Made by a program: the position numbers and the translations under genes | In this document: in pieces, positions 13,199 through 24,879 of the stretch | How the letters are laid out: each line of letters starts with the position of its first letter | How positions within the stretch are numbered: position 1 is the first letter of the stretch | Notes under the pieces: generated by a model | Database searches by the model: none | Told to the model about the DNA's origin: nothing | What the model saw: the letters and a program-made list of their open reading frames with translations, nothing else | Assembly (NCBI GenBank): GCA_963849365.1 | Contig: CAWKHA010000004.1 | Coordinates: forward strand, 585,214 to 649,213 | Direction of reading: 5' to 3' | Length of the DNA stretch: 64,000 nucleotides | Source of the DNA: an uncultured Actinomycetota bacterium | GTDB lineage: Bacteria > Actinomycetota > Actinomycetes > Prado026

Positions 13199-13785
13199 GT
13201 CAGGGGCAGGGCCGTCAGCTCGCCGTCGGGCAGCGCTGCTTCCAGCGGACGGCCGTTGCGCGTGAGCAGCACACTGTCGACCAGGGGCATGGCCGTGAGC
13301 GTCAGCACGACCTGACCGGTGGCCAGGTGGGCCTGGTCCGCGGCGGGACCGGGGTCGCTGCCCTCCAGGTCGACCACCGCCTGACCGTCGACGAGGCTGA
13401 CCAGCTTGAGCGTCAGGCCGGGTGGGATCGCCGACGACAGGCCGGCCTTGCGCTCCGTCGCGTCCGGCCCCGCGACCAGCTGCGCGAGCGTCTGCGCGAT
13501 CGCCTGCTGGGTGTCCGCCGACACCGGCGCGCGGCGGACGGGGCGCAGCATGTTCTCTCCCGACACGAAGAACAGGTCCGCCGTCCCTCCCGCCGCGGGA
13601 CGGGACTGCGTCTGCGAGCCCGCGGCCGCGTGGTCCGGCACCCCGGCCTGGTCGATCGCAGCCGGCTCGTCCATCGTCGGCAGCCCGCACCCGGACAGCC
13701 CCACCGCCAGCAACGTGGCCCCGAGCGCGCACCCGACGAGCGCCCGTACGACGGCCCGGCGGCGCCGGTGCAGCGAACCGTTCAC
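13165..13785 (-). CDS. small GerMN-domain lipoprotein, miniature LpqB-like
   Basis: 207 aa; lipobox LSGCG after signal; GTG start overlaps kinase stop as GTGA; C-terminal part of track ORF 13165..15168. Confidence 0.55.
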   Translation of the reverse strand: MNGSLHRRRRAVVRALVGCALGATLLAVGLSGCGLPTMDEPAAIDQAGVPDHAAAGSQTQSRPAAGGTADLFFVSGENMLRPVRRAPVSADTQQAIAQTLAQLVAGPDATERKAGLSSAIPPGLTLKLVSLVDGQAVVDLEGSDPGPAADQAHLATGQVVLTLTAMPLVDSVLLTRNGRPLEAALPDGELTALPLTEQDFSVLLQR

Positions 13786-15146
13786 GGCATGGCCTCCACG
13801 CAGGGCAGCCAGAGCACGAAGCGGGCCCCACCGCCGGGCCGTTCGGTGCACCACACCTCGCCACCGAGCGAGGACGCGGTCTCCTTGACGATCGCCAGAC
13901 CCAGCCCCGTCCCGCGGGCCGAGCCACGGGCGCCCCCGCTGGTCGCGAACCGCGCGAACACCCGCTCCCGGTCGGCCAGCGGCACTCCAGGTCCCGCGTC
14001 GTCGACGAGCACGCAGACCCCGGCGCTGTCCTGGACCACTTCGACAGCGACCACGCCGCCGCCGTACCGGTCCGCGTTCTCGACCAGGTTGGCGAACGCG
14101 CGCTCCAGCCGGGCCCGGTCGGCGTTGACCACGACGTGGGTGTCCCCCTGCACGAGCGTGGCCGGCAGGCTGCGCATGGCCAGCGACTGCTCGACCAGAC
14201 AGCGCAGGTCCACGTCCTGCAGCTGCTGGTCGGGCAGCCCCGCGTCGAAGCGGGCCAGCTCGATCAGCTCGTCCAGGAGCCGGCGGAACCGCGCCAGCTC
14301 CGCCGACGTCAGGTCGAGTGCCTGGCGCTGGACCGGCGACATCCCCGCCGCCCGCGCCTGCAGCAGGTCCACGGCGGCGACGAGCGTCGTCAACGGGGTG
14401 CGCAGCTCGTGGCTGACGTCGGCGGCGAACGACGCGTCCCGCTCGATCCGCGTCTGCAGCGCGTCCACCATGCTGTTGAACGAGCCGACGATCGTCACCA
14501 GGTCGGGGTCGTCGGTGGGCTCCAGCCGGCGGGACAGCTGACCGCCGGCGATCTGCGCGGCGGCGGTCGCCACGCCGTCCAGCGGCTCGAGCACCCGCCG
14601 GCTCGACCAGACGCCGATGCCCACGCCCGCGGCCGCCGCGCAGACGGTGCCGATGGCGAGGATGAGCCCGAGGATGTTCAGGCTGCGGACGAGGTCGTCC
14701 AGCGGGGCGACCTCGTACAGCTCGCCCCCCACGCCGGTCAACGGGATGCCGACGACGACGACCTCGCCCTGCGGCCCGTCCACCACCTGGTAGCCGGCCG
14801 ACCCGCCGGACGACATCGAGACCAGCGCGCCGGGGACCGACTCGGCGCCGACGTCGAGCGAGGACGAGAACCAGCTTCCCGCGCGGTGGATCAGTACCAC
14901 CGAGGCGGACAGCGGGTCGAGCGCGTTGAGCACGTCGCTGGCGTCGGTGCCGGGCGTCTCCAGCCTGGCCGTCGAGAGGCGCGCGTCGATGGCTGCCCGC
15001 CGCTGCACGCCCTCGACCCGCTGCTCGAGCAGGTAGCTGCGGGCCAGCAGGAAGGTCGCCATGGCGAACAGGACTGCGACCAGGAGCGTCCCCGCGCCCA
15101 GGTACAGGGTCGTCCGGGCCCGCAGCGACCGGGGCCGCAAGCTCAT
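13782..15146 (-). CDS. sensor histidine kinase (MtrB-like)
   Basis: 454 aa; two TM, HAMP, H-box SHELRTPLT, ATPase G-boxes. Confidence 0.8.
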   Translation of the reverse strand: MSLRPRSLRARTTLYLGAGTLLVAVLFAMATFLLARSYLLEQRVEGVQRRAAIDARLSTARLETPGTDASDVLNALDPLSASVVLIHRAGSWFSSSLDVGAESVPGALVSMSSGGSAGYQVVDGPQGEVVVVGIPLTGVGGELYEVAPLDDLVRSLNILGLILAIGTVCAAAAGVGIGVWSSRRVLEPLDGVATAAAQIAGGQLSRRLEPTDDPDLVTIVGSFNSMVDALQTRIERDASFAADVSHELRTPLTTLVAAVDLLQARAAGMSPVQRQALDLTSAELARFRRLLDELIELARFDAGLPDQQLQDVDLRCLVEQSLAMRSLPATLVQGDTHVVVNADRARLERAFANLVENADRYGGGVVAVEVVQDSAGVCVLVDDAGPGVPLADRERVFARFATSGGARGSARGTGLGLAIVKETASSLGGEVWCTERPGGGARFVLWLPCVEAMP

Positions 15147-15850
15147 CGCCGGTCGAGCCGGTAACCAAGACCGCGCACGGTCACGATCAGCTCGGGGTTC
15201 GCCGGGTCCTTCTCGATCTTCGTGCGGAGCCGCCGGACGTGGACGTCGACGAGCCGCTCGTCACCGAAGAAGCCGTGGTCCCAGACCCGTTCCAACAGCT
15301 GCTGGCGGCTGAGCACCCGGCCCTCGGCGTCGGCGAGCTCGCTGAGCAGCCGGAACTCGGTCAGCGTCAGGTGCACCGGCTCCTCGCCACGGCGTACCCA
15401 GCCGGCCGCCGTCGCCAGCACCAGCGGGGCCAGCGGGTCCGAGCCGTCCAGCAGCACCGCCCCGACGTCTTCGGACCCGTTGTCGTGGCGGCGCTGCGTC
15501 CGGCGCAGCAGCGCCCGCAACCGGGCCGTCATCTCCTTCACCTGGAACGGCTTGGTCAGGTAGTCGTCGGCCCCGACCTCCAGGCCGGCCACGATGTCGT
15601 GGGTGTCGTCGCGGGCGCTGACCACCACGATCGGGATGTCGCTCGTCCGGCGCACCTCGCGGATGCAGTCGAAGCCCGACATCCCGCCGAGCATCAGGTC
15701 GACCAGCATGACGTCCGGCCCCACCGCAGCGAAGGTGTCCAGCGCCTCCTCGGCGCTGGCGGTCGGGGCCACCTCGTAGCCCTCGTCCTCGAGTGCGAGC
15801 CCCAGCACGGCGCGGACGCGGTCGTCGTCCTCGACCAGCATCACCCGGAC
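15143..15850 (-). CDS. OmpR-family response regulator (MtrA-like paralog)
   Basis: Receiver domain (VMLVEDDDRV ... DYLTKPF) plus winged-helix trans_reg_C; stop overlaps kinase start (ATGA); start GTG near 15850 or ATG 15841. Confidence 0.8.
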   Translation of the reverse strand, partial: VRVMLVEDDDRVRAVLGLALEDEGYEVAPTASAEEALDTFAAVGPDVMLVDLMLGGMSGFDCIREVRRTSDIPIVVVSARDDTHDIVAGLEVGADDYLTKPFQVKEMTARLRALLRRTQRRHDNGSEDVGAVLLDGSDPLAPLVLATAAGWVRRGEEPVHLTLTEFRLLSELADAEGRVLSRQQLLERVWDHGFFGDERLVDVHVRRLRTKIEKDPANPELIVTVRGLGYRLDRR

Positions 15851-16032
15851 TCCCACCGCACGATGCTCGCACAGCCGCGGGACCGCCGGACCCGGCTGCC
15901 CGGACCCACGGAGTTCGTCACACGACCGCAAAGTGGCCGACCGCACCGTCGCAAGGTTGGCTGAGCACGGTAGGGGCCAAGGGACCGCGGCGCTACAGCC
16001 GCAGACGACGCACCGAGGAGGCAGGCGCTGCG

Positions 16033-16374
16033 ATGACGGCCACAGCGTTCGACCTGCGCGAGCAGGCCGTCGTCGAGCTGGACGACCACACGATCAACGA
16101 GGGGCTGCCGGACCTGCGCTGGCACCTGCGCGACCTGGTACTGGGCGGGGCCCAGACCATCCGGGTCGACCTGACGCACACGACCCGGATGGGCTCCACG
16201 GCGTTGGCGGCGCTGCTCAGCGCCCACCGGGCCTGCCGGGCCCGCGGCGGCGGCGTCGTGCTCGTCAACCCGAACCGGCAGGTGCTGGAGCTCATGCGGC
16301 GCACCGGGCTGTGGCGCGTCTTCCGTACCGAGCAGGCCGGCCGGGCGGGCAGCGAAGGCACCGGCCGACGGTGA
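16033..16374 (+). CDS. STAS-domain protein (anti-sigma-factor antagonist-like)
   Basis: 113 aa; STAS fold sequence; no conserved phosphorylatable Ser identified. Confidence 0.65.
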   Translation: MTATAFDLREQAVVELDDHTINEGLPDLRWHLRDLVLGGAQTIRVDLTHTTRMGSTALAALLSAHRACRARGGGVVLVNPNRQVLELMRRTGLWRVFRTEQAGRAGSEGTGRR

Positions 16375-17000: not shown

Positions 17001-17971
17001 TCAGCCGGCCAGCGCGCGAAGGTACGCGAGCGTCTGCGGGATCTGCGTCAGCGGCTGCGAGAAGCTCGCCGCAGCCGTGTTGTTGTACCAGGCAGCGCCG
17101 ATCGGCGGGTAGGGCGCCCACTGGTTGATCGTCGACTGGATGTACGCGATGTCCTTGGCGTCACCGGAGTGGTAGCCGAACTCCGGGATCGCCCATGGCT
17201 TGTGCTTGGCCTTCGCGTAGTTCATCGCACGCACCACGTTGTCGGGCACGTAGCAGTCGAAGCCGAGCACGTCGGCGGGCACGTACCAGCTCTCCGGGTC
17301 ACCGTGCGGCTTGCTCGGCGCGAGCACGTATCCCTCGAGGATGCTCATCGACTTCACCCGCGAGCTCGGGTACTTCTTCTCCACCGACAGCAGCTGCGCC
17401 CAGCCGGCGCGGTACTGCGCGGTGTTGAAGTGGTTGCTCGGGTTGTCCGCCTCGTGCTGCCAGTCCCAGTAGACCGTGCGGCCGGACTTGTTCCACGCCT
17501 GCAGAAGAGTGGCGAACTGCGCGTTGAACTTGCCGGAGGCGACCGTCGCCAGGCTGACACCGTCGAAGGACACCCAGATCTGGTAGCTCGACGGCAGCGC
17601 GGGCAGCGTGGTCTTCGGGGTGCTCCAGAAGACGCGACCGACGCGGGCGTTCGGGAACATCTTGATCGTCTGGGTGCTGTTGCCGCCCATCGAGGTCCCG
17701 AAGGCCACGCCACGTGCGGCCGCGGGGATCGTGTAGGACGTCGTGGCGCTGGTGGGCTCGCGGTGGCCGCCTTCGCGGTGGCCGCCTTCGCGGTCGTCGC
17801 GGTCGTGGCCGCCGGGGTGGCCGTGGCGCTGACCGCCGCCTTGTCCTTGTGATGCTTGTGCTTGTGCTTGTGGACCGTGGCGGCGTTGCTGGTGCTCACC
17901 AGCACCGGTATGAGCAGCGGGACGGTGAAGAGGGACAGGGGCGCGAGTCTGCGGAGTAGGGCGGTTGACAT
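17001..17971 (-). pseudogene. secreted GH26-like glycoside hydrolase, copy 1, disrupted by a 1-nt frameshift next to a tandem repeat
   Basis: Signal peptide + KHKHKHH + TAK-rich linker in the frame of track ORF 17354..18304. Catalytic domain (WQHEAD ... WAIPEFG) in the frame of ORF 17001..18311. Frame switch near 17745-17752. Confidence 0.55.
17753..17800. repeat. tandem 15-bp duplication GCGGTGGCCGCCTTC x2 followed by GCGGTCGTC/GCGGTCGTG x2 (encodes KAATAKAATA linker on minus strand)
   Basis: Seen directly; immediately adjacent to the frameshift position of GH26-like copy 1. Confidence 0.5.
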
Positions 17972-18373
17972 CCGGTGAACCTTCTCTGTCGGGGGCATTG
18001 CCTGTCTCGGATCCCGGGGTCCCGCCCTGGTACACCCGGGTGTCCGATCTGTCTCGGCGGACAGCATGCCACGACCACCGCAACCTTTCTGTGACCTGAG
18101 GGGCGTGACATGAGCCACGGGGCCCCCGGGCTTGTGACATCGGCGTGAATTCGAAACCCGTTGGCCGCACACGCCACACGGCGCCCTCCTCCCCCACCGC
18201 AGGCCGCAGGCGTGGCATGGTGTCCTCGGACCAGATAACGAACTGGTCACGAGGTGCGGCGGATGCCGCAGGATAGGGAGGCGCCGCTTCGACGACGCGA
18301 CCAAGGAACATCCGACCGGAGTCCGACGTACAAGGGCGGGACGACCGGCTCCCAGGCAGAAAAGGTCAGCCGT

Positions 18374-19345
18374 ATGTCATCCGCCCTACTTCGTAGGCTT
18401 GCTCCACTTTCCCTCTTCGCCGTTCCCCTTCTGATACCCGTACTCGTCAGCACCAGCAACGCGGCCACCAACCACAAGCACAAGCACAAGCACCACGCGA
18501 ACAAGGCGTCGGTGAGTGCGAAGGCGACTACCTCGGCCAAGACCACCTCCGCCGCGAAGACCAGCACCACCGCGAAGGCCTCGACGGCCGCCGTGGCCGC
18601 GGCGCCGAACATGGCCATCCCGGCGGCAGCACGAGGTGTCCTGTTCGGCACCTCGATGGGCACCGACAGCGCAGCGACGGTGCGGCTCTTCCCGAACGCC
18701 CGGATCGGCCGGGTCTTCTGGAGCTCGCCGAAGACCACGCTGCCGGCGCTGCCGTCCTCGTACGCGATCTGGCTGTCCTTCAAGACCAGCCCTTCGACGG
18801 TCGCGTCCGGTCAGTTCAACGCTCAGTTCGCCACGATGCTGCAGGCCTGGAACAGGTCCGGACGCACCGTGTTCTGGACCTGGCAGCACGAGGCCGACCG
18901 GCACGCCGGGTTCAGCTCTGCGCAGTTCCGGCAGGGCTGGGCGCAGCTGCTGTCGGTGGAGAAGAAGTACCCCAGCTCCCGGGTGAGGTCAATGAGCATC
19001 CTCACCGGCATCGTCCTCGCGCCGAACAGGCCGCACGGAGACCCGGCCAACTGGTACGTGAACGCGGACGTGCTCGGCTTCGACTGCTACGTCCCGGCCA
19101 GCGTCCCGCGGGCCATGGCGTACGCGAGGGCGAAGCACAAGCCGTGGGCGATCCCGGAGTTCGGCGCCGACAACGGTGACGCCGGCAACATCAAGTACAT
19201 CCAGGACACCATCAACCAGTGGGCTGCGTACCCGCCGGTCGGCGCGTCCTGGTACAACAACACAGCCGCGGCCAGCTTCTCGCAGCCGTTGCGGCAGCTG
19301 CCGCAGACGACGACCTACCTGCGCGCACTCGCAGCCGTCGGCTGA
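18374..19345 (+). CDS. secreted GH26-like glycoside hydrolase, copy 2 (intact)
   Basis: 323 aa: signal, KHKHKHH, Thr/Ala/Lys linker, catalytic domain with WQHEAD (acid/base-like) and WAIPEFG (nucleophile-like) motifs. Confidence 0.65.
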   Translation: MSSALLRRLAPLSLFAVPLLIPVLVSTSNAATNHKHKHKHHANKASVSAKATTSAKTTSAAKTSTTAKASTAAVAAAPNMAIPAAARGVLFGTSMGTDSAATVRLFPNARIGRVFWSSPKTTLPALPSSYAIWLSFKTSPSTVASGQFNAQFATMLQAWNRSGRTVFWTWQHEADRHAGFSSAQFRQGWAQLLSVEKKYPSSRVRSMSILTGIVLAPNRPHGDPANWYVNADVLGFDCYVPASVPRAMAYARAKHKPWAIPEFGADNGDAGNIKYIQDTINQWAAYPPVGASWYNNTAAASFSQPLRQLPQTTTYLRALAAVG

Positions 19346-19452: not shown

Positions 19453-20400
19453 TCAGTGGGTGGGGTGCGCCCGGTAGTAGTCGCGCCAGATGAGCCGGTG
19501 CACCGGCACCCAGCGCGGGATCGACCGCAGGACGGGGATGAACGGCAGCAGCAGGAACCCCAGCGTCAGCAGCATCATCAGCCCCCAGACGTAGGCGTCC
19601 GCGCTGGCCCCGACCGTGGTGCTCTCGTCGCTGAACGGCTTGACCTGGTACCAGAAGGTGTACAGCCACAGCCACGACTGGCCGGGGTAGCTGCCCGTCT
19701 CGTTCATCATCCCCCACTGGTCCCCGCCCAGGTGCTGGCCGCGGGCCTGGTCCTCCAGGTACGTGCCGTCGGCGAGGAACAGCAGCGGGTAGGTGTAGTC
19801 GGTGTTGAAGAACTTCCCGCGCGCCTGCAGGACCCCGTCCAGCGAACCCTGCTGCGCCGCGTCCAGGGCCGCCGCCGTCAGCGCCGGTACCGGACCGTAG
19901 TCACCCGACGCGGCCTGGGTGTAGTCGCCCTCCGGTGCGTTGGCCACGGCGTCCGCGTACGCGCCCGCCCACGCTGCCTGCTGGTCCGCCGTCGCCTGGT
20001 TCCAGGTGTTGAGCGCCGCCGTGACCTCCGCCGACGCCGGCAGGCTGCTGAGCGGGTCGATCACGAAGTCCTTCGCGGCGTCGATCGGGATCCGGACGCC
20101 GGAGGCCTTCTGCAGGTCCAGCGGACCGAGCTTCTGGGTCGCGTCCGTCGTGTTGTACGGCGGCCCGTAACCCGCCGTGCCGCTGGTTCCGGCCAGCTCC
20201 TGTGCCGCCGTCGAGACGAAGTCCGACGGGGCCGCCTTGGCCCACGACTGCAGGGTGAGGCTCTTCTCGTCCGGTGACCCGAACGCGAACGCCAGCCCGA
20301 TGACGAGCGCCCCGACCACGACCAGGGCGATCACGAACTCCTTGACCAGGTCGTACTCCCGGGTCGCTCCCGACCACGGGCGGCTCGCGATGTCGGTCAT
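19453..20400 (-). CDS. bitopic/polytopic membrane protein encoded downstream of cytochrome b; C-terminal helix carries a cyt b C-domain-like VLRSIP segment
   Basis: 315 aa, N-terminal TM, ~230-aa extracytoplasmic domain, C-terminal hydrophobic LMMLLTLGFLLLPFIPVLRSIPRW; ATG overlaps cyt b stop (ATGA); no Cys. Confidence 0.55.
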   Translation of the reverse strand: MTDIASRPWSGATREYDLVKEFVIALVVVGALVIGLAFAFGSPDEKSLTLQSWAKAAPSDFVSTAAQELAGTSGTAGYGPPYNTTDATQKLGPLDLQKASGVRIPIDAAKDFVIDPLSSLPASAEVTAALNTWNQATADQQAAWAGAYADAVANAPEGDYTQAASGDYGPVPALTAAALDAAQQGSLDGVLQARGKFFNTDYTYPLLFLADGTYLEDQARGQHLGGDQWGMMNETGSYPGQSWLWLYTFWYQVKPFSDESTTVGASADAYVWGLMMLLTLGFLLLPFIPVLRSIPRWVPVHRLIWRDYYRAHPTH

Positions 20401-21083
20401 GACTGCACCTCCTGCGGCTCCGGGGAGGCCAGCGGTTCCTCGTGCGCCTCAGGCGCGTCCGTCGCGTCGATCGGCGGCACGACACCGCGCCTGCGGACCT
20501 GGAGCACGTGCCACACCACGACCGCACCGAGGACCAGCGGGAGCAGCGCGACGTGGAACAGGAGCATCTGGCCGACGTCGAGCACGTTGAACCACGCGCC
20601 GATCCCGACCGAGTTGAGCCCGTCCTTCGCCTGCGTCGAGATCCACTGCGCGTCGAAGTTCGTCTGGACGAGGTAGCCCGTGAAGGCCGTGCCGATCGAG
20701 GCCAGGAAGGCCACGACCCCCGTCATCCAGGTCGCGGCGCGGCGACCCCGCCACGACGCCATCCAGAACTTGCCCCACAGGTGCACGACCATGAACAGGA
20801 AGAACAGCTCGACGCTCCACAGGTGGGTGCTGTTCACGTAGTGGCCGACCGAGGACGTGTGGTACCACTGCGGACCCGCGAGGGTCAGGACCAGCCCTGA
20901 CACGATCACGAAGATGAGCGCAGCGATGGTCGCGACGCCGAAGACGTAGATCCACGAGGCGACGTACTCGGGCTGCTCCTCGGGGAGGAGCTTCTCCGGT
21001 GGGAGCGCACCGAAGAACCGGCGGCGGAGCCGGCCGGTCCAGGTGCGCGGCTGCGGCTCCGCGTGGTGCGTGGCCGCCGTCAT
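20397..21083 (-). CDS. cytochrome b, N-terminal (b6-like, four-helix, bis-heme) domain only
   Basis: 228 aa; four His in expected helices (HLWS...VVHLW; FHVALLP...WHVLQ). Cyt b N-domain consensus. C-terminal part of artefactual track ORF 20397..23597. Confidence 0.75.
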   Translation of the reverse strand: MTAATHHAEPQPRTWTGRLRRRFFGALPPEKLLPEEQPEYVASWIYVFGVATIAALIFVIVSGLVLTLAGPQWYHTSSVGHYVNSTHLWSVELFFLFMVVHLWGKFWMASWRGRRAATWMTGVVAFLASIGTAFTGYLVQTNFDAQWISTQAKDGLNSVGIGAWFNVLDVGQMLLFHVALLPLVLGAVVVWHVLQVRRRGVVPPIDATDAPEAHEEPLASPEPQEVQS

Positions 21084-21259
21084 GGCCGCCGCCTCCCCTT
21101 GGGGAACGGCAACGCGATCGCCAGGACGAACAGCACGATCCCGATCGCGATCATGACGAGGTTGCCGACCGAGATCTGGATGGGCCCCGCGTCCAGGTAG
21201 CGCGCGGGCTGGTCCAGGTTGCCGGTGAGCGCCCAGAGGGCGGAAACGGCGGAACTCAT
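21080..21259 (-). CDS. small single-TM membrane protein, first gene of the cytochrome b operon
   Basis: 59 aa MSSAVSALWALTGNLDQPARYLDAGPIQISVGNLVMIAIGIVLFVLAIALPFPKGRRRP; stop overlaps cyt b ATG (ATGA). Confidence 0.45.
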   Translation of the reverse strand: MSSAVSALWALTGNLDQPARYLDAGPIQISVGNLVMIAIGIVLFVLAIALPFPKGRRRP

Positions 21260-21338
21260 GGCGTCTCCTGACGTCTCGGTGCCATGCCCCCATGACGAGC
21301 AGCAGGCTAGGGGCGGGCCGCTGGGCGGCAATAGGGAC

Positions 21339-21373
21339 CAACGTCCCTTCCGGCCCCGCTGCCGGGGACGTTG
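21339..21373. promoter_or_regulatory. 9-bp inverted repeat CAACGTCCC ... GGGACGTTG (17-nt spacer) in divergent promoter region between the cyt b operon and the DUF4157 gene
   Basis: Seen in sequence; also nested GGGAC-N4-GTCCC. Confidence 0.35.
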
Positions 21374-21497
21374 CGGTGACGCGCCGGGACGACCCTGGAG
21401 GGCTCCGCCGGTCGCCGGACGAGGCGACCCTTGACGAGGACGCGCCTTGACCGAGCAGGCCCGAGCACGGCGAGCCGGCACCGACCACCCACTGGCC

Positions 21498-23672
21498 ATG
21501 AGCTCGCCGCATGACGCCCAGGAGCAGGAAGCAGAGGGCGCGGCCCGCGCTGTCGTCGGCGGCGGGTCGGCGCGTCCGGTGACCCGGCGGCCGGCGGCGG
21601 CCGGTGCTGCGGGCACGGCAGCCGCTGCCGCCGAGATCTCGGCGCAGATCGACCCGGCCCGTAGCGGCGGCGACGCGCTGCCGGGCGACGTCCGCGGTCG
21701 GATGGAGCGTGGCTTCGGCACGAGCTTCGGTGGCGTACGGCTGCACACCGGTGCCGACGCCGACCGGTTGGCCGGCTCCGCCTCCGCCCGCGCGGTCACC
21801 TCCGGCCCGGACGTGTTCCTGCGCTGGGGCGAGAACCGTCCCGCCAGCCCCGAGGGGCAGCGACTGCTGGCCCACGAGCTGGCGCACGTGGTCCAGCAGC
21901 GCGGTGGCGAGCGGGCCATCCACCGGCAGACCAACCCGCCGCCGACCGGTGGCGGTGGAGGCGGGACACCGGCAGCACGCGTGGTGTACATCGACGCCAA
22001 CGTCGTCATCCAGATCAACCGCGGCAACCAGCCGGTGGCCGACGCGCTCCGGCAGATGCGGGCATCGGGCGTCGACGTGCGCATATCGCCGTTCCAGCGC
22101 GACGAGCTGGTCCGCAACCCGGACATCCCCCGCACGGCCACCGCTCAGCGCCTCATGCTCGAGGAGATGAACGTCCAGACCGGGACGGCACCGACCCTCG
22201 CACAGCGGATCGACGTGGCTACCGAGGGCCAGACGGCCAGCGGCGGCAACATCATGCAGCTGCGCGACCAGCAGCTGGTCGCCTCCGCGCGGGCGGACGG
22301 CAGGAACGTCGAGATCTGGAGCCTGGACACGCCGTTCACGTCCAACTCCGGGCAGGTCGAGGGCACGTACGGCGTGCGCGTCGCGCCGGAGAGCCGGTTG
22401 CCCGTCGTCGCGGCGCGTCCGGACTACCGGGTGGGGCGGGCCCTGCTCGGGCTCGATCCCGTGGAGATCTCGCTCACCGGCGAGGTCACGCGCGGCACGC
22501 CGCCGAGCGGAGGCGGCGGCACCACCACGGGGGGCGGCGGACCGGCCGGAGGCGGTGTCCGACCCGTCCCGCCGACGCCGGGCAGCTCGGGCGCCGGGTC
22601 CACCGTCGGGACCGGAACCAGGGTCGTGGCCGGTGGTCTGGCCATCCTGATCGTTGTCAACGAGGTGCTCGGCGGGATCAACCGCGTCCGAAACGTCCAG
22701 CAGCAGAACATCGACATGGGAGAGGCGCGGCTGGCCTTCTGGCAGCGGTTCGGCGGCAGCCCCACCCGAGGCGTCTGGGACCAGACCGGGCAGCACCCGC
22801 TGCCGGCCGGCACGACGCCGGAGACCAGCGTCTTCGGGTCGCCGTCCTTCCCCTACGTCGTCGACATCGATGTCGCCGGCTTCCGCACCAGCCTGGCGAG
22901 CCACATCGACAGCTACCAGGACTTCTTGTACTTCCTCGACGCCGCCAAGACGCTGGGCACGATCGAGGAAGACCCGCTCATGCCCGACTTCCCCAACAGT
23001 GCGCAACGGGCCGCGAGCCGGCGCTACTACGCCTGGGTCAACAACCCCGACCGCGCCGGACGGCACAGCTACGACATCACGGACACGATCACCAGCGTGC
23101 GCGACGCCGCGCTCAACGAGCTCGGCGAGGGGATGCGCGACCAGGTGCGCGGGCTCTCGGCGGCGCAGCAGGGCAGCGTGTTCCGGCTGAAGGACCGGGC
23201 CGACACCCCGATCTACCGGTCGGCGGGGGGTGGCCAGCAGATCCTCACCGCGCAACAGGTCTTCGGGCCCGACCCGTGGGTCCGGACGACGGGTGAGCAA
23301 CGGGACGTGGGCGGCTGGTTCAGCACAGACATCAGGAAGCTCGTCGTGCCCGCGAACGCCGACGCCCAGCGCGCGGCGCTGGTCAGCGGGTACTGGGTCA
23401 AACAGCCCATCGAGGACACGCTCGACGAGGTCAAGGCCGGCGGACGGCCGGTCCTGGACCGGCAGCCCGCCACCGGTCCGGTCAACAGCTTCGTGGCCGG
23501 CCCCGAACCGGCGGGCCGGGACCGCTTCGGCCAGACGCGCTACTACCGTCATCCCGACCCCGACATCAGGTGGACCGTCGCGCTGGGCGAGCTGCACGAG
23601 TTCTGGGTCAAGGCGGGCGACCTCGAGAGCATCCCCGTGGCCGACGTCCAGGCCTACGCGGGCAGCCGGTAG
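21498..23672 (+). CDS. large multidomain protein: DUF4157 zincin-like (HExxH) module + PIN-like nuclease-like region + Gly-rich linkers/hydrophobic segment + ~330-aa unknown C-terminal domain
   Basis: RMERGFGTSFGGVRLHTGADADRLA ... RLLAHELAHVVQQRG; VVYIDANVVIQINRGN ... NVEIWSLDTPF; ATG 21498 (alternative weak TTG 21447). Confidence 0.7.
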   Translation: MSSPHDAQEQEAEGAARAVVGGGSARPVTRRPAAAGAAGTAAAAAEISAQIDPARSGGDALPGDVRGRMERGFGTSFGGVRLHTGADADRLAGSASARAVTSGPDVFLRWGENRPASPEGQRLLAHELAHVVQQRGGERAIHRQTNPPPTGGGGGGTPAARVVYIDANVVIQINRGNQPVADALRQMRASGVDVRISPFQRDELVRNPDIPRTATAQRLMLEEMNVQTGTAPTLAQRIDVATEGQTASGGNIMQLRDQQLVASARADGRNVEIWSLDTPFTSNSGQVEGTYGVRVAPESRLPVVAARPDYRVGRALLGLDPVEISLTGEVTRGTPPSGGGGTTTGGGGPAGGGVRPVPPTPGSSGAGSTVGTGTRVVAGGLAILIVVNEVLGGINRVRNVQQQNIDMGEARLAFWQRFGGSPTRGVWDQTGQHPLPAGTTPETSVFGSPSFPYVVDIDVAGFRTSLASHIDSYQDFLYFLDAAKTLGTIEEDPLMPDFPNSAQRAASRRYYAWVNNPDRAGRHSYDITDTITSVRDAALNELGEGMRDQVRGLSAAQQGSVFRLKDRADTPIYRSAGGGQQILTAQQVFGPDPWVRTTGEQRDVGGWFSTDIRKLVVPANADAQRAALVSGYWVKQPIEDTLDEVKAGGRPVLDRQPATGPVNSFVAGPEPAGRDRFGQTRYYRHPDPDIRWTVALGELHEFWVKAGDLESIPVADVQAYAGSR

Positions 23673-23694: not shown

Positions 23695-24735
23695 TCACAG
23701 CACGGCGACCGTGGTGCCGGGCGTGCTCGGCACGTCCCGGTCCATCGCAGCGAGCGCGTCCGGCACCTCGTCGAGCCTGATGCGCCGGCCGATCAGGGCG
23801 GAAGGGTCCAGCCGCCCCGACACGATGTCGGCGAGCATCGGGGCGTACTCCGGCGCCGGCATCCCGTGGCTGCCCAGGATCTCGAGCTCGCGGTACACCA
23901 CGTCGCCCATGTCGACCGGGGGATCGGCGTCGGGCCCGGTCAGCAGTCCGACCTGGACGTGCCGGCCGCCCGGGCGCAGGCTGGCGACACCGTCGGCCAG
24001 TAGAGCCGCTCGACCCAGGGCGTCGATGCTCGCGTGCGCTCCCTCGCCGGTCAGGTCCCGGGCGGCGCCGCGCACGTCGACCGCGGCCGGGTCGAGGGTG
24101 ACCTGGGCACCCATCGTCGTGGCCGCGGCACGGGCCGCGGGTGACGGGTCGACAGCGATGACCCGCGCGCCACGGCTGGCGGCGACCATCACCGCGGAGA
24201 GGCCGACTCCTCCGCAGCCGAGGACCAGCACCCAGTCCTGCGCCCCGACCCGGGCCTGCGAGACGACGGCCCGGTAGGCGGTCGCGAAGCGGCAGCCGAG
24301 CACGGCGGCCGTGACGTCGTCGAGCCCGGCAGGGAGTGCGACCAGGTTGACGTCCGCATGGTCGACCAGCACCCGCTCCGCGAAGGAGCCGTCCCTGGTG
24401 AACCCCGGCTGAGTCTGGCGGAGGCAGACCTGCGGGCGACCCTCCCGGCACAGCGCGCAGCTGCCGCACGCGTTCACGAACGGCGCCGTGACGCGATCGC
24501 CGGGGCGCCAGCCGACGACGTCCGGACCGACCTCGATCACCGCACCGGCGAACTCGTGCCCCGGCACGTACGGCACGGTCATGCTCGGGTCGTGCCCGCG
24601 CCAGCCGTGCCAGTCGCTCCGGCAGACCCCGGTGGCGCCGACCTCCACCACTGCACCGTGCGGCGGGCAGACGGGCTCGGACACCTCGTGCAGCCGAGGC
24701 CTGCGCCCGAACTCCTCGACGACCACCGCTTGCAC
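23695..24735 (-). CDS. zinc-dependent alcohol dehydrogenase (MDR family)
   Basis: 346 aa from GTG; GHEFAG, C-x2-C-x2-C-x7-C structural zinc motif, GCGGVG Rossmann. Confidence 0.8.
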   Translation of the reverse strand: MQAVVVEEFGRRPRLHEVSEPVCPPHGAVVEVGATGVCRSDWHGWRGHDPSMTVPYVPGHEFAGAVIEVGPDVVGWRPGDRVTAPFVNACGSCALCREGRPQVCLRQTQPGFTRDGSFAERVLVDHADVNLVALPAGLDDVTAAVLGCRFATAYRAVVSQARVGAQDWVLVLGCGGVGLSAVMVAASRGARVIAVDPSPAARAAATTMGAQVTLDPAAVDVRGAARDLTGEGAHASIDALGRAALLADGVASLRPGGRHVQVGLLTGPDADPPVDMGDVVYRELEILGSHGMPAPEYAPMLADIVSGRLDPSALIGRRIRLDEVPDALAAMDRDVPSTPGTTVAVL

Positions 24736-24879
24736 GGCCGGCCTCCCGCTCTTCGTGGCAGGACCGCAGCCGGCGAACGCACGGCCGCTCCCTGCTGGAG
24801 GAACGTACCCGGCGCTGCGGTCCGCCGGGCGGGACCAACGACCCTGCGCGGGGACCGGGACGGCGCGTGTACTCGGACG

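Follow-up and report, generated by a model that had tools for sequence, protein, structure and literature searches.

Cytochrome b is among the best-studied membrane proteins and is nearly always treated within Rieske/cytochrome b complexes. The family also contains the cytochrome b subfamilies K, H and G' (Dibrova et al. 2013/2017), which fall outside the canonical bc complexes and whose function is obscure (PMC5600118). This study concerns a three-gene module in a 64,000-nucleotide stretch of DNA from an uncultured Actinomycetota bacterium (GenBank assembly GCA_963849365.1, contig CAWKHA010000004.1, positions 585,214 to 649,213 of the forward strand), which is called the window below and comes from an actinobacterial host with a GC content of ~72%. 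The module encodes a small protein of 59 amino acids (aa), a 228-aa cytochrome b and a 315-aa membrane protein, referred to here as the partner protein. The data suggest, with a probability that we put at roughly 55%, that these proteins make up an autonomous, Rieske-independent di-heme cytochrome b complex that arose from a b6/subunit IV core and belongs to a DosR-type hypoxia regulon.

The first-pass annotation of this DNA, which was made from its letters alone, had described three minus-strand genes chained by ATGA overlaps, and this agrees with both the open reading frames (ORFs) and the coordinates of the two junctions (21080-21083 and 20397-20400). The GC content at the third codon position (GC3) is 0.95 for the 59-aa frame, 0.95 for the 228-aa frame and 0.96 for the 315-aa frame, whereas at codon position 2 it is 0.46-0.50, and therefore all three ORFs are real coding frames. 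The operon consists of exactly three genes because it is bounded by a divergent gene upstream (21447-23672, plus strand) and a convergent gene downstream (18254-19345, plus strand, 363 aa).

The sequence of the 228-aa protein places it firmly in the cytochrome b N-terminal domain family, with scores above the Pfam gathering cut-offs for both PF13631 (48.2 bits, cut-off 27) and PF00033 (29.7 bits, cut-off 27.2). Its closest solved relatives are the cytochromes b6 of b6f complexes (1q90_B, 3.5e-9). H87/H101 in helix B and H177/H192 in helix D are in register with the b6 ligands of hemes bL and bH, with a helix D spacing of the b6 type, and so the four conserved heme-ligand His that had been noted in helices B and D stand, both pairs being aligned to b6 ligands. 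These four residues are invariant in eight diverse members, including fusion proteins and Bacillota sequences at 38-46% identity, and two b hemes are predicted to bind them. The CxGG motif of heme cn is not found in the 228-aa protein, in which helix A reads YVFGVAT and has no Cys. The cd loop is shortened and divergent, with VQTNFDAQW in place of the Qo-site LPWGQ, and in or near this loop the protein has invariant residues of its own (Q146, W147, K153, D154, N157, G171 and Q172). The best NCBIfam match is ExtP (NF040969, 3.5e-13), which at 49.9 bits is below its cut-off of 290. More than 7,000 non-redundant homologues exist, and automated annotation calls them 'ubiquinol-cytochrome c reductase cytochrome b subunit'. 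It had been considered at the outset that the gene could be a truncated copy of qcrB. However, the actinobacterial QcrB model NF050120, which has its cut-off at 500, gives 8.5 bits, and the match to actinobacterial QcrB in the PDB is weaker than the match to b6 (21.6 vs 39.7 bits), so the protein is not a truncated QcrB.

The association of the three genes is strongly conserved. A scan of one genome per GTDB species found a relative in at least 583 species genomes. Gene order was compared in 81 loci, namely the best 80 loci of that scan and one Phycicoccus locus, all of them actinobacterial. The cytochrome b gene is immediately upstream of the 315-aa homologue in every one of the 81, and the small protein was found upstream of cytochrome b in 78 using tblastn; two of the three misses are contigs that end upstream, and in the third (L063) there was no detection. 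The sampled taxa include Streptomyces, Kitasatospora, Arthrobacter, Terrabacter, Amycolatopsis, Cryobacterium and Nocardioides as well as Acidimicrobiia and Thermoleophilia/Solirubrobacterales. Additionally, a profile of distant members retrieved Bacillota (Alicyclobacillus, Sulfoacidibacillus, Hydrogenisulfobacillus and Thermaerobacter) and Chloroflexota. Four of the five loci examined from these two phyla carry a small ORF, a cytochrome b of 201-213 aa, a ~320-aa protein and an extra 69-77-aa protein with two transmembrane (TM) helices, which is not present in the fifth (L089) or in the window.

Natural fusions point the same way. Cytochrome b and the 315-aa protein are joined in frame in P0107, P0116 and P0128, and all three proteins (small, cytochrome b and 315-aa) are joined in P0129, with linker lengths compatible with the topology of long cytochrome b. 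Together with the fixed gene order, the fusions are a strong argument for one complex made up of the three proteins. The concern that the two partners might not accompany the cytochrome b gene in other genomes is answered by these fusions and by the locus counts. A complete three-gene module was also seen on plasmid unnamed3 (95 kb) of Pseudarthrobacter sp. P1 (L065, 5524-7339), which means that the module can be mobile; a search of PLSDB (2024 version) gave no copy of it.

Rieske and cytochrome c genes are not part of this conserved arrangement. No protein with a Rieske motif or a CxxCH motif is encoded within ~10 kb of the operon in the window, and in the 81 actinobacterial loci (+/-8 kb) there was no ORF with a Rieske motif, with CxxCH ORFs in four of them. 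No Rieske family or cytochrome c was recorded in the five Bacillota/Chloroflexota loci either. Every other gene family is limited to at most 15 of the 81 neighbourhoods and none of those found is a conserved redox partner, nor was a conserved neighbouring oxidoreductase seen in any phylum examined. The proposal of the first-pass annotation, that this is not a canonical qcrCAB/bc1 locus but a b-type cytochrome unit that stands alone, has novel partners and lacks a Rieske protein or cytochrome c nearby, is thus upheld by the co-conserved trio and by the neighbourhood data. The interaction with quinol that the annotation also named would be putative.

A feature that goes beyond that annotation and is new here is the DosR-type box upstream of the module. 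The perfect palindrome GGGACGTTGGTCCC has its only exact match in the window in the 187-bp intergenic region common to the operon and the divergent 21447-23672 gene. Its GGGAC-N4-GTCCC form agrees with the published DevR/DosR-OsdR consensus, and the OsdR consensus AGGGCCGATCGGCCCT has itself been described as one that 'conforms well' to the DevR site (PMC5069765). An enrichment scan of 1.17 Mb of related actinobacterial loci, in which the interval -160..-40 was tested with a Poisson p, found 6 exact boxes in the interval (at -92 to -120) when 0.025 were expected (p 3e-13) and 3 outside it. When up to one mismatch was allowed, 17 boxes in 16 loci were in the interval compared to 0.6 expected (p 3e-19), and 73 were outside. 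With up to two mismatches, 42 of the 79 upstream regions contain a site, in most cases at -50 to -130. If the -10-like hexamer upstream of the operon (Table 1) spans -12 to -7, then the centre of the box would be at -43.5. A centre near -43.5 is the typical position at DevR-activated promoters. A sigma-70 consensus promoter scan and a terminator scan of the operon gave nothing informative.

The same box is also found ahead of other genes in loci L001, L025, L038, L067 and L073. These genes encode GAF histidine-kinase/NarL-type regulator pairs (dosS/dosR-like), USP, Pyridox_ox_2, CBS and zinc-dependent alcohol dehydrogenase (Zn-ADH) proteins, and the same families together with P-type ATPases are the commonest minority neighbours of the module. 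A DosS/DosR-type system with the same box ahead adjoins the module in ~10 of 81 other genomes.

Two loci with additional boxes were noted alongside. In the window, a Zn-ADH gene (ADH_N + ADH_zinc_N; 23695-24735, minus strand) is located beyond the divergent gene, ~2.4 kb upstream of the first gene of the operon, and its GTG start has a one-mismatch box, GGGACCAACGACCC (24831-24844), 96 nt upstream. Zn-ADH neighbours the module in 7 of 81 other genomes, and it may be co-regulated with the module. In Phycicoccus badiiscoriae (L001), DosR-type boxes at 1708, 1769, 2322, 5767 and 7624 are ahead of Pyridox_ox_2, CBS, beta-CASP/metallo-beta-lactamase, GAF-kinase and regulator genes, with USP genes flanking and the cytochrome b module in the middle, and this locus looks like a compact dormancy regulon island.

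More than 7,900 non-redundant homologues of the partner protein exist, virtually all of them annotated as 'hypothetical', and the family forms 957 clusters at 50% identity. Profile searches had been proposed for all three proteins, and they bore out the cytochrome b assignment of the 228-aa protein but placed neither the 315-aa nor the 59-aa protein in any Pfam or NCBIfam family, the matches being TM-helix noise only. A Pfam scan of 109 members of the 315-aa family likewise gave only such noise and no PF00032. Searches of PDB sequences found nothing meaningful with phmmer and nothing at E <= 10 with a profile hmmsearch. An AF2 model from a 109-sequence alignment (predicted local distance difference test, pLDDT, 89.8; predicted TM-score, pTM, 0.79) has TM helix 1 at residues 18-40 and TM helix 2 at 267-283 followed by a basic cytoplasmic tail, and between the two it has a ~200-aa all-alpha extracytoplasmic domain and an amphipathic helix at 242-252 (SWLWLYTFWYQ). 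A Foldseek search of the PDB with this model found no solved fold relative (best E 1.8).

The family alignment of the partner protein has the invariant motifs YGPPYN, PL, YGPVP, QWG, YPGxxW, Y-Q and LVPFIPGxxxxP, and its invariant residues are of the types Pro, Gly, Tyr, Trp, Gln and Asp. It contains no conserved Cys, His or Met, and therefore no metal or cofactor site is evident. Model confidence is lowest at the most conserved loops of the two proteins, the cytochrome b cd loop and, in the 315-aa protein, the QWG..NETG..YPG loop, and this would fit a shared cofactor- or ligand-dependent site. Outside Actinomycetota, some 315-aa homologues are named 'cytochrome B6' in NCBI/UniRef although they have no cytochrome b domain, which is probably a propagated misannotation. 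The 59-aa protein is predicted to have its N-terminus outside and its C-terminal KGRRRP inside, and an alignment of 74 copies has the conserved motif Y..(W)G..QISV.NL.VI..M...F.LA..LPFP.GR. Residues 14-59 of fusion P0129, its small-protein part, are 46% identical to the 59-aa protein of the window (E 3e-13).

Comparison of sequences and gene order makes it plausible that the partner protein descends from subunit IV. The 315-aa gene follows cytochrome b as petD follows petB, and in the fusions the first TM helix of the 315-aa part comes ~30 cytoplasmic residues after helix D, which is the topology of helix E. When the 315-aa family was compared by hhalign with a small alignment of PetD and bovine cytochrome b C-domains, the template sequences of which were entered by hand and make the result a lead rather than a database match, the score was 26.5 (P 0.004, probability 8.7%); the best of 60 column shuffles reached 20.1, and the reversed template 18.1. 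The alignment pairs WLWLYTFWYQV with PEWYFYPVFQIL, so that WLWLYTFWYQ falls on PEWYFYPVFQ (PEWY and the ef helix), and it pairs the last TM helix and LLPFIPV with helix F (...ITVPFIE). The motif in the 315-aa family is P-G-x-x-W-L-W and not PxWY. A model of fusion P0107 (pLDDT 75, pTM 0.74, conserved loops at pLDDT <50) retrieved full-length bc1 cytochromes b first in Foldseek, with TM-scores of 0.26-0.31 and little aligned beyond the four-helix bundle. The first-pass annotation had rightly read a protein without Cys whose last helix ends in VLRSIP (in full ...PFIPVLRSIP), but its comparison of VLRSIP to the helix-E region did not survive, since the profile alignment sets the last TM helix on helix F and VLRSIP comes after that helix, not before it. 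The ILRSIP of canonical cytochrome b is found between PEWY and helix F and not in helix E. On the alignment, the similarity is probably coincidental in position.

Table 1. Features of the module in the window, and the additional gene of related loci.
Feature	Position	Strand	Basis or remark
Small subunit, 59 aa, one TM helix	21080-21259 (including stop)	minus	ORF listing, sequence
Cytochrome b6-like four-helix protein, predicted di-heme, 228 aa	20397-21083	minus	Pfam, PDB alignment
Partner protein, 315 aa, no Cys	19453-20400	minus	ORF listing, AF2 model, alignments
AGGAG ribosome-binding site	21265-21269	minus	5 nt before ATG of small ORF, from sequence
TAGCCT, -10-like hexamer (TANNNT)	21304-21309	minus	read by eye
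Perfect palindrome GGGACGTTGGTCCC, DevR/DosR/OsdR-type operator	21334-21347		88 nt upstream of first ATG; sequence match
Fourth gene, two TM helices, 69-77 aa	L082 9035-9244; L084 8969-9187; L086 7990-8205		directly downstream of 315-aa homologue

The genes around the operon were also inspected. An exact database look-up of the window's own protein returned no record. The product of the divergent 21447-23672 gene (741 aa) has an eCIS_core/DUF4157 domain at residues 78-154, with HExxH, followed by ~580 further residues without a Pfam match, Gly-rich linkers among them. Genes 17001-18311 (minus strand) and 18254-19345 (plus strand) are divergently oriented paralogues with secreted products, each of which has an N-terminal signal/TM segment, an HKHKHKHH His-Lys repeat, an Ala/Thr-rich linker and a C-terminal domain of ~250 aa. 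This domain has WQHEAD and PEFG motifs reminiscent of glycoside hydrolases, and neither product has a Pfam match at E <= 0.001. An OmpR-type two-component system (13782-16093, minus strand) with a HAMP-HisKA-HATPase kinase and a Response_reg/Trans_reg_C regulator is located ~3.4 kb downstream of the operon, and there was no sign of linkage between it and the cytochrome b module.

The model proposed here is that the three gene products would be subunits of one membrane complex with 1 + 4 + 2 TM helices. The core would be a cytochrome b6-type four-helix bundle with two bis-His b hemes stacked across the membrane, and the 315-aa subunit would take the place of subunit IV, or of the C-terminal domain of a long cytochrome b, after helix D and with equal topology. 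This subunit may stem from a helix E/PEWY/helix F segment that lost the later helices and gained a helical outer domain of ~200 aa. Such a complex would need no dedicated Rieske protein or cytochrome c. Its most likely activity would be transmembrane electron transfer between the menaquinone pool and a partner on the outer face, and on the analogy of all characterised members of the fold the hemes would form an electron wire across the membrane that is coupled to a quinone site. The outer domain and the remodelled p-side loops may offer a substrate or partner a new site. Transcription would depend on the DevR/DosR/OsdR-type operator here and in many other Actinomycetota, and a DosR-type operator would make the complex part of the hypoxia/nitric oxide/carbon monoxide (dormancy) response. 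The most plausible role would be an extra route for electron disposal or redistribution once oxygen respiration fails. A sink or redistribution route for the electrons of a menaquinone pool that is over-reduced agrees with the logic of a dormancy regulon.

Several observations weigh against this model. About half of the loci either lack the operator or have a degenerate form of it (>=3 mismatches), and there is no dosR or dosS gene in the window. The hhalign match is weak at 8.7%, is driven mostly by one TM helix and depends on hand-entered templates, the 315-aa protein has neither a PDB sequence match at E <= 10 nor a Foldseek relative, and the fold matches of P0107 barely reach its C-terminal half. 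Also, the Qo determinants PEWY and cd-loop LPWGQ are replaced, so that a Qo-like site cannot be relied on to oxidise quinol. Conserved metal or cofactor ligands do not occur in the outer domain of the 315-aa protein. The window covers 64 kb, and a Rieske gene could sit elsewhere in the genome. Finally, literature searches found no paper on any member of the module.

In a different explanation, the module is an alternative Rieske/cytochrome b complex that runs a normal bifurcating Q cycle with a Rieske protein and a c-type or other acceptor encoded elsewhere, for example shared with qcrCAB. Cytochrome b genes with non-adjacent Rieske genes have been published, e.g. in planctomycetes (PMC5600118), both heme sites are retained in this cytochrome b, and full-length bc1 cytochromes b head the list of Foldseek matches to the fusion model. 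However, the lack of a Rieske motif in the 81 actinobacterial loci is joined by the lack of a recorded one in the five loci of other phyla, and PEWY and LPWGQ, which build the Qo/Rieske docking surface, are the very elements that are replaced. A conserved outer domain of ~200 aa would also occupy the place where the Rieske head would dock, and this explanation is considered rather unlikely. A better, though still minority, chance is given to the module serving a soluble oxidoreductase, the gene of which is elsewhere, as a di-heme membrane anchor or electron conduit, with the outer domain as a docking platform. It would then be similar to ExtP or to the b-type anchors known from formate dehydrogenase, hydrogenase and pNar (NarC). 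Four-helix cytochromes are commonly anchors (PMC5600118), the outer domain has no cofactor ligands, and the best NCBIfam match is ExtP, the b-type cytochrome of a reductase operon. That match is far under its cut-off, though, the module has the same two or three private subunits everywhere, and a conserved neighbouring oxidoreductase is lacking in every phylum examined.

It is quite improbable that the module transfers no electrons and is instead a membrane complex of the stress response with a structural, a heme-handling or a heme-based signalling role. GAF-domain sensor kinases are recurrent neighbours and neither an acceptor nor a donor is evident, and the subfamily K cytochromes b of cyanobacteria are likewise of 'obscure' function (PMC5600118). 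Against this, two membrane-spanning bis-His hemes with b6-type spacing are the hallmark of an electron wire. Hexacoordinate hemes are moreover poor gas sensors. The idea that the cytochrome b is a decayed or truncated qcrB paralogue between fortuitous flanking ORFs has next to no chance and was rejected. It is suggested only by the name that annotation pipelines give to the homologues, and it is at odds with thousands of homologues each of the cytochrome b (>7,000) and the 315-aa protein in an order that is fixed across three phyla, with invariant heme ligands, high GC3 and in-frame fusions, and with the very low QcrB score.

A b6-type core is found here with fixed private partners, namely a fold-orphan protein that has two TM helices and a large outer domain, and a very small subunit with one TM helix. 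The module is common, occurring in three phyla with thousands of sequences and in at least 583 species genomes, and its 315-aa partner has no Pfam family. By its DosR-type operator it would belong to the hypoxia/dormancy response of Actinomycetota, where oxidation of the menaquinone pool and energisation of the membrane during dormancy have both medical (mycobacterial relatives) and ecological (soil bacteria) relevance. A more far-reaching possibility, which is put forward only tentatively, is that this is an unrecognised respiratory complex of monoderms (Actinomycetota, Bacillota and Chloroflexota), a Rieske-independent b6/subunit IV descendant with a new outer domain that would form a novel catalytic or docking site. 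It would be under DosR-type control, oxidise menaquinol and pass the electrons across the membrane to an extracytoplasmic acceptor. If true, dormant, oxygen-starved cells would have an electron sink that present models of hypoxic survival do not include. The origin of subunit IV is obscure, and the partner protein may have a bearing on it.

Literature searches found no description of the trio, of the 315-aa family or of its link to DosR. Subfamilies K, H and G', ExtP and NarC are similar to the module in that they are members of the cytochrome b family without, or apart from, a Rieske/cytochrome c pair (PMC5600118), but none of those described has this 315-aa partner or the small subunit, and subfamily K has lost one heme ligand whereas the family described here keeps all four. 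The QcrB of the actinobacterial bcc-aa3 supercomplex (NF050120; PDB 7q21_B, 6hwh) shares the host phylum, the Pfam superfamily and the di-heme character, but the cytochrome b of the module is short and split, and no qcrA or qcrC is adjacent. The likeness to b6 and PetD is the most extensive. It includes a four-helix cytochrome b with His pairs 13 and 14 residues apart and an FTGY motif, a C-terminal VRRRGVxPP that resembles the IRKQGISGP of b6, a separate downstream gene for a membrane partner whose first helix has the topology of helix E, independent fusions to a 'long' form, tiny single-TM subunits and a weak profile similarity from PEWY to helix F. However, the module differs from b6f complexes in having no Rieske or cytochrome f/c neighbours and no CxGG or heme cn, and in the replacement of PEWY and LPWGQ. 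Its partner differs from PetD in having two TM helices rather than three, in the additional helical outer domain of ~200 aa and in not matching PF00032.

On the regulatory side, we know of no cytochrome b module of this kind listed in the DosR regulon of M. tuberculosis. The main text of the OsdR paper never uses the word 'cytochrome' (PMC5069765). What the module does share with the DevR/DosR regulon of M. tuberculosis and with S. coelicolor's OsdR regulon is the palindrome itself with its putative position at -43.5, along with the box-bearing USP, Pyridox_ox_2, CBS, P-type ATPase and GAF-kinase/NarL-regulator genes that are found near it.

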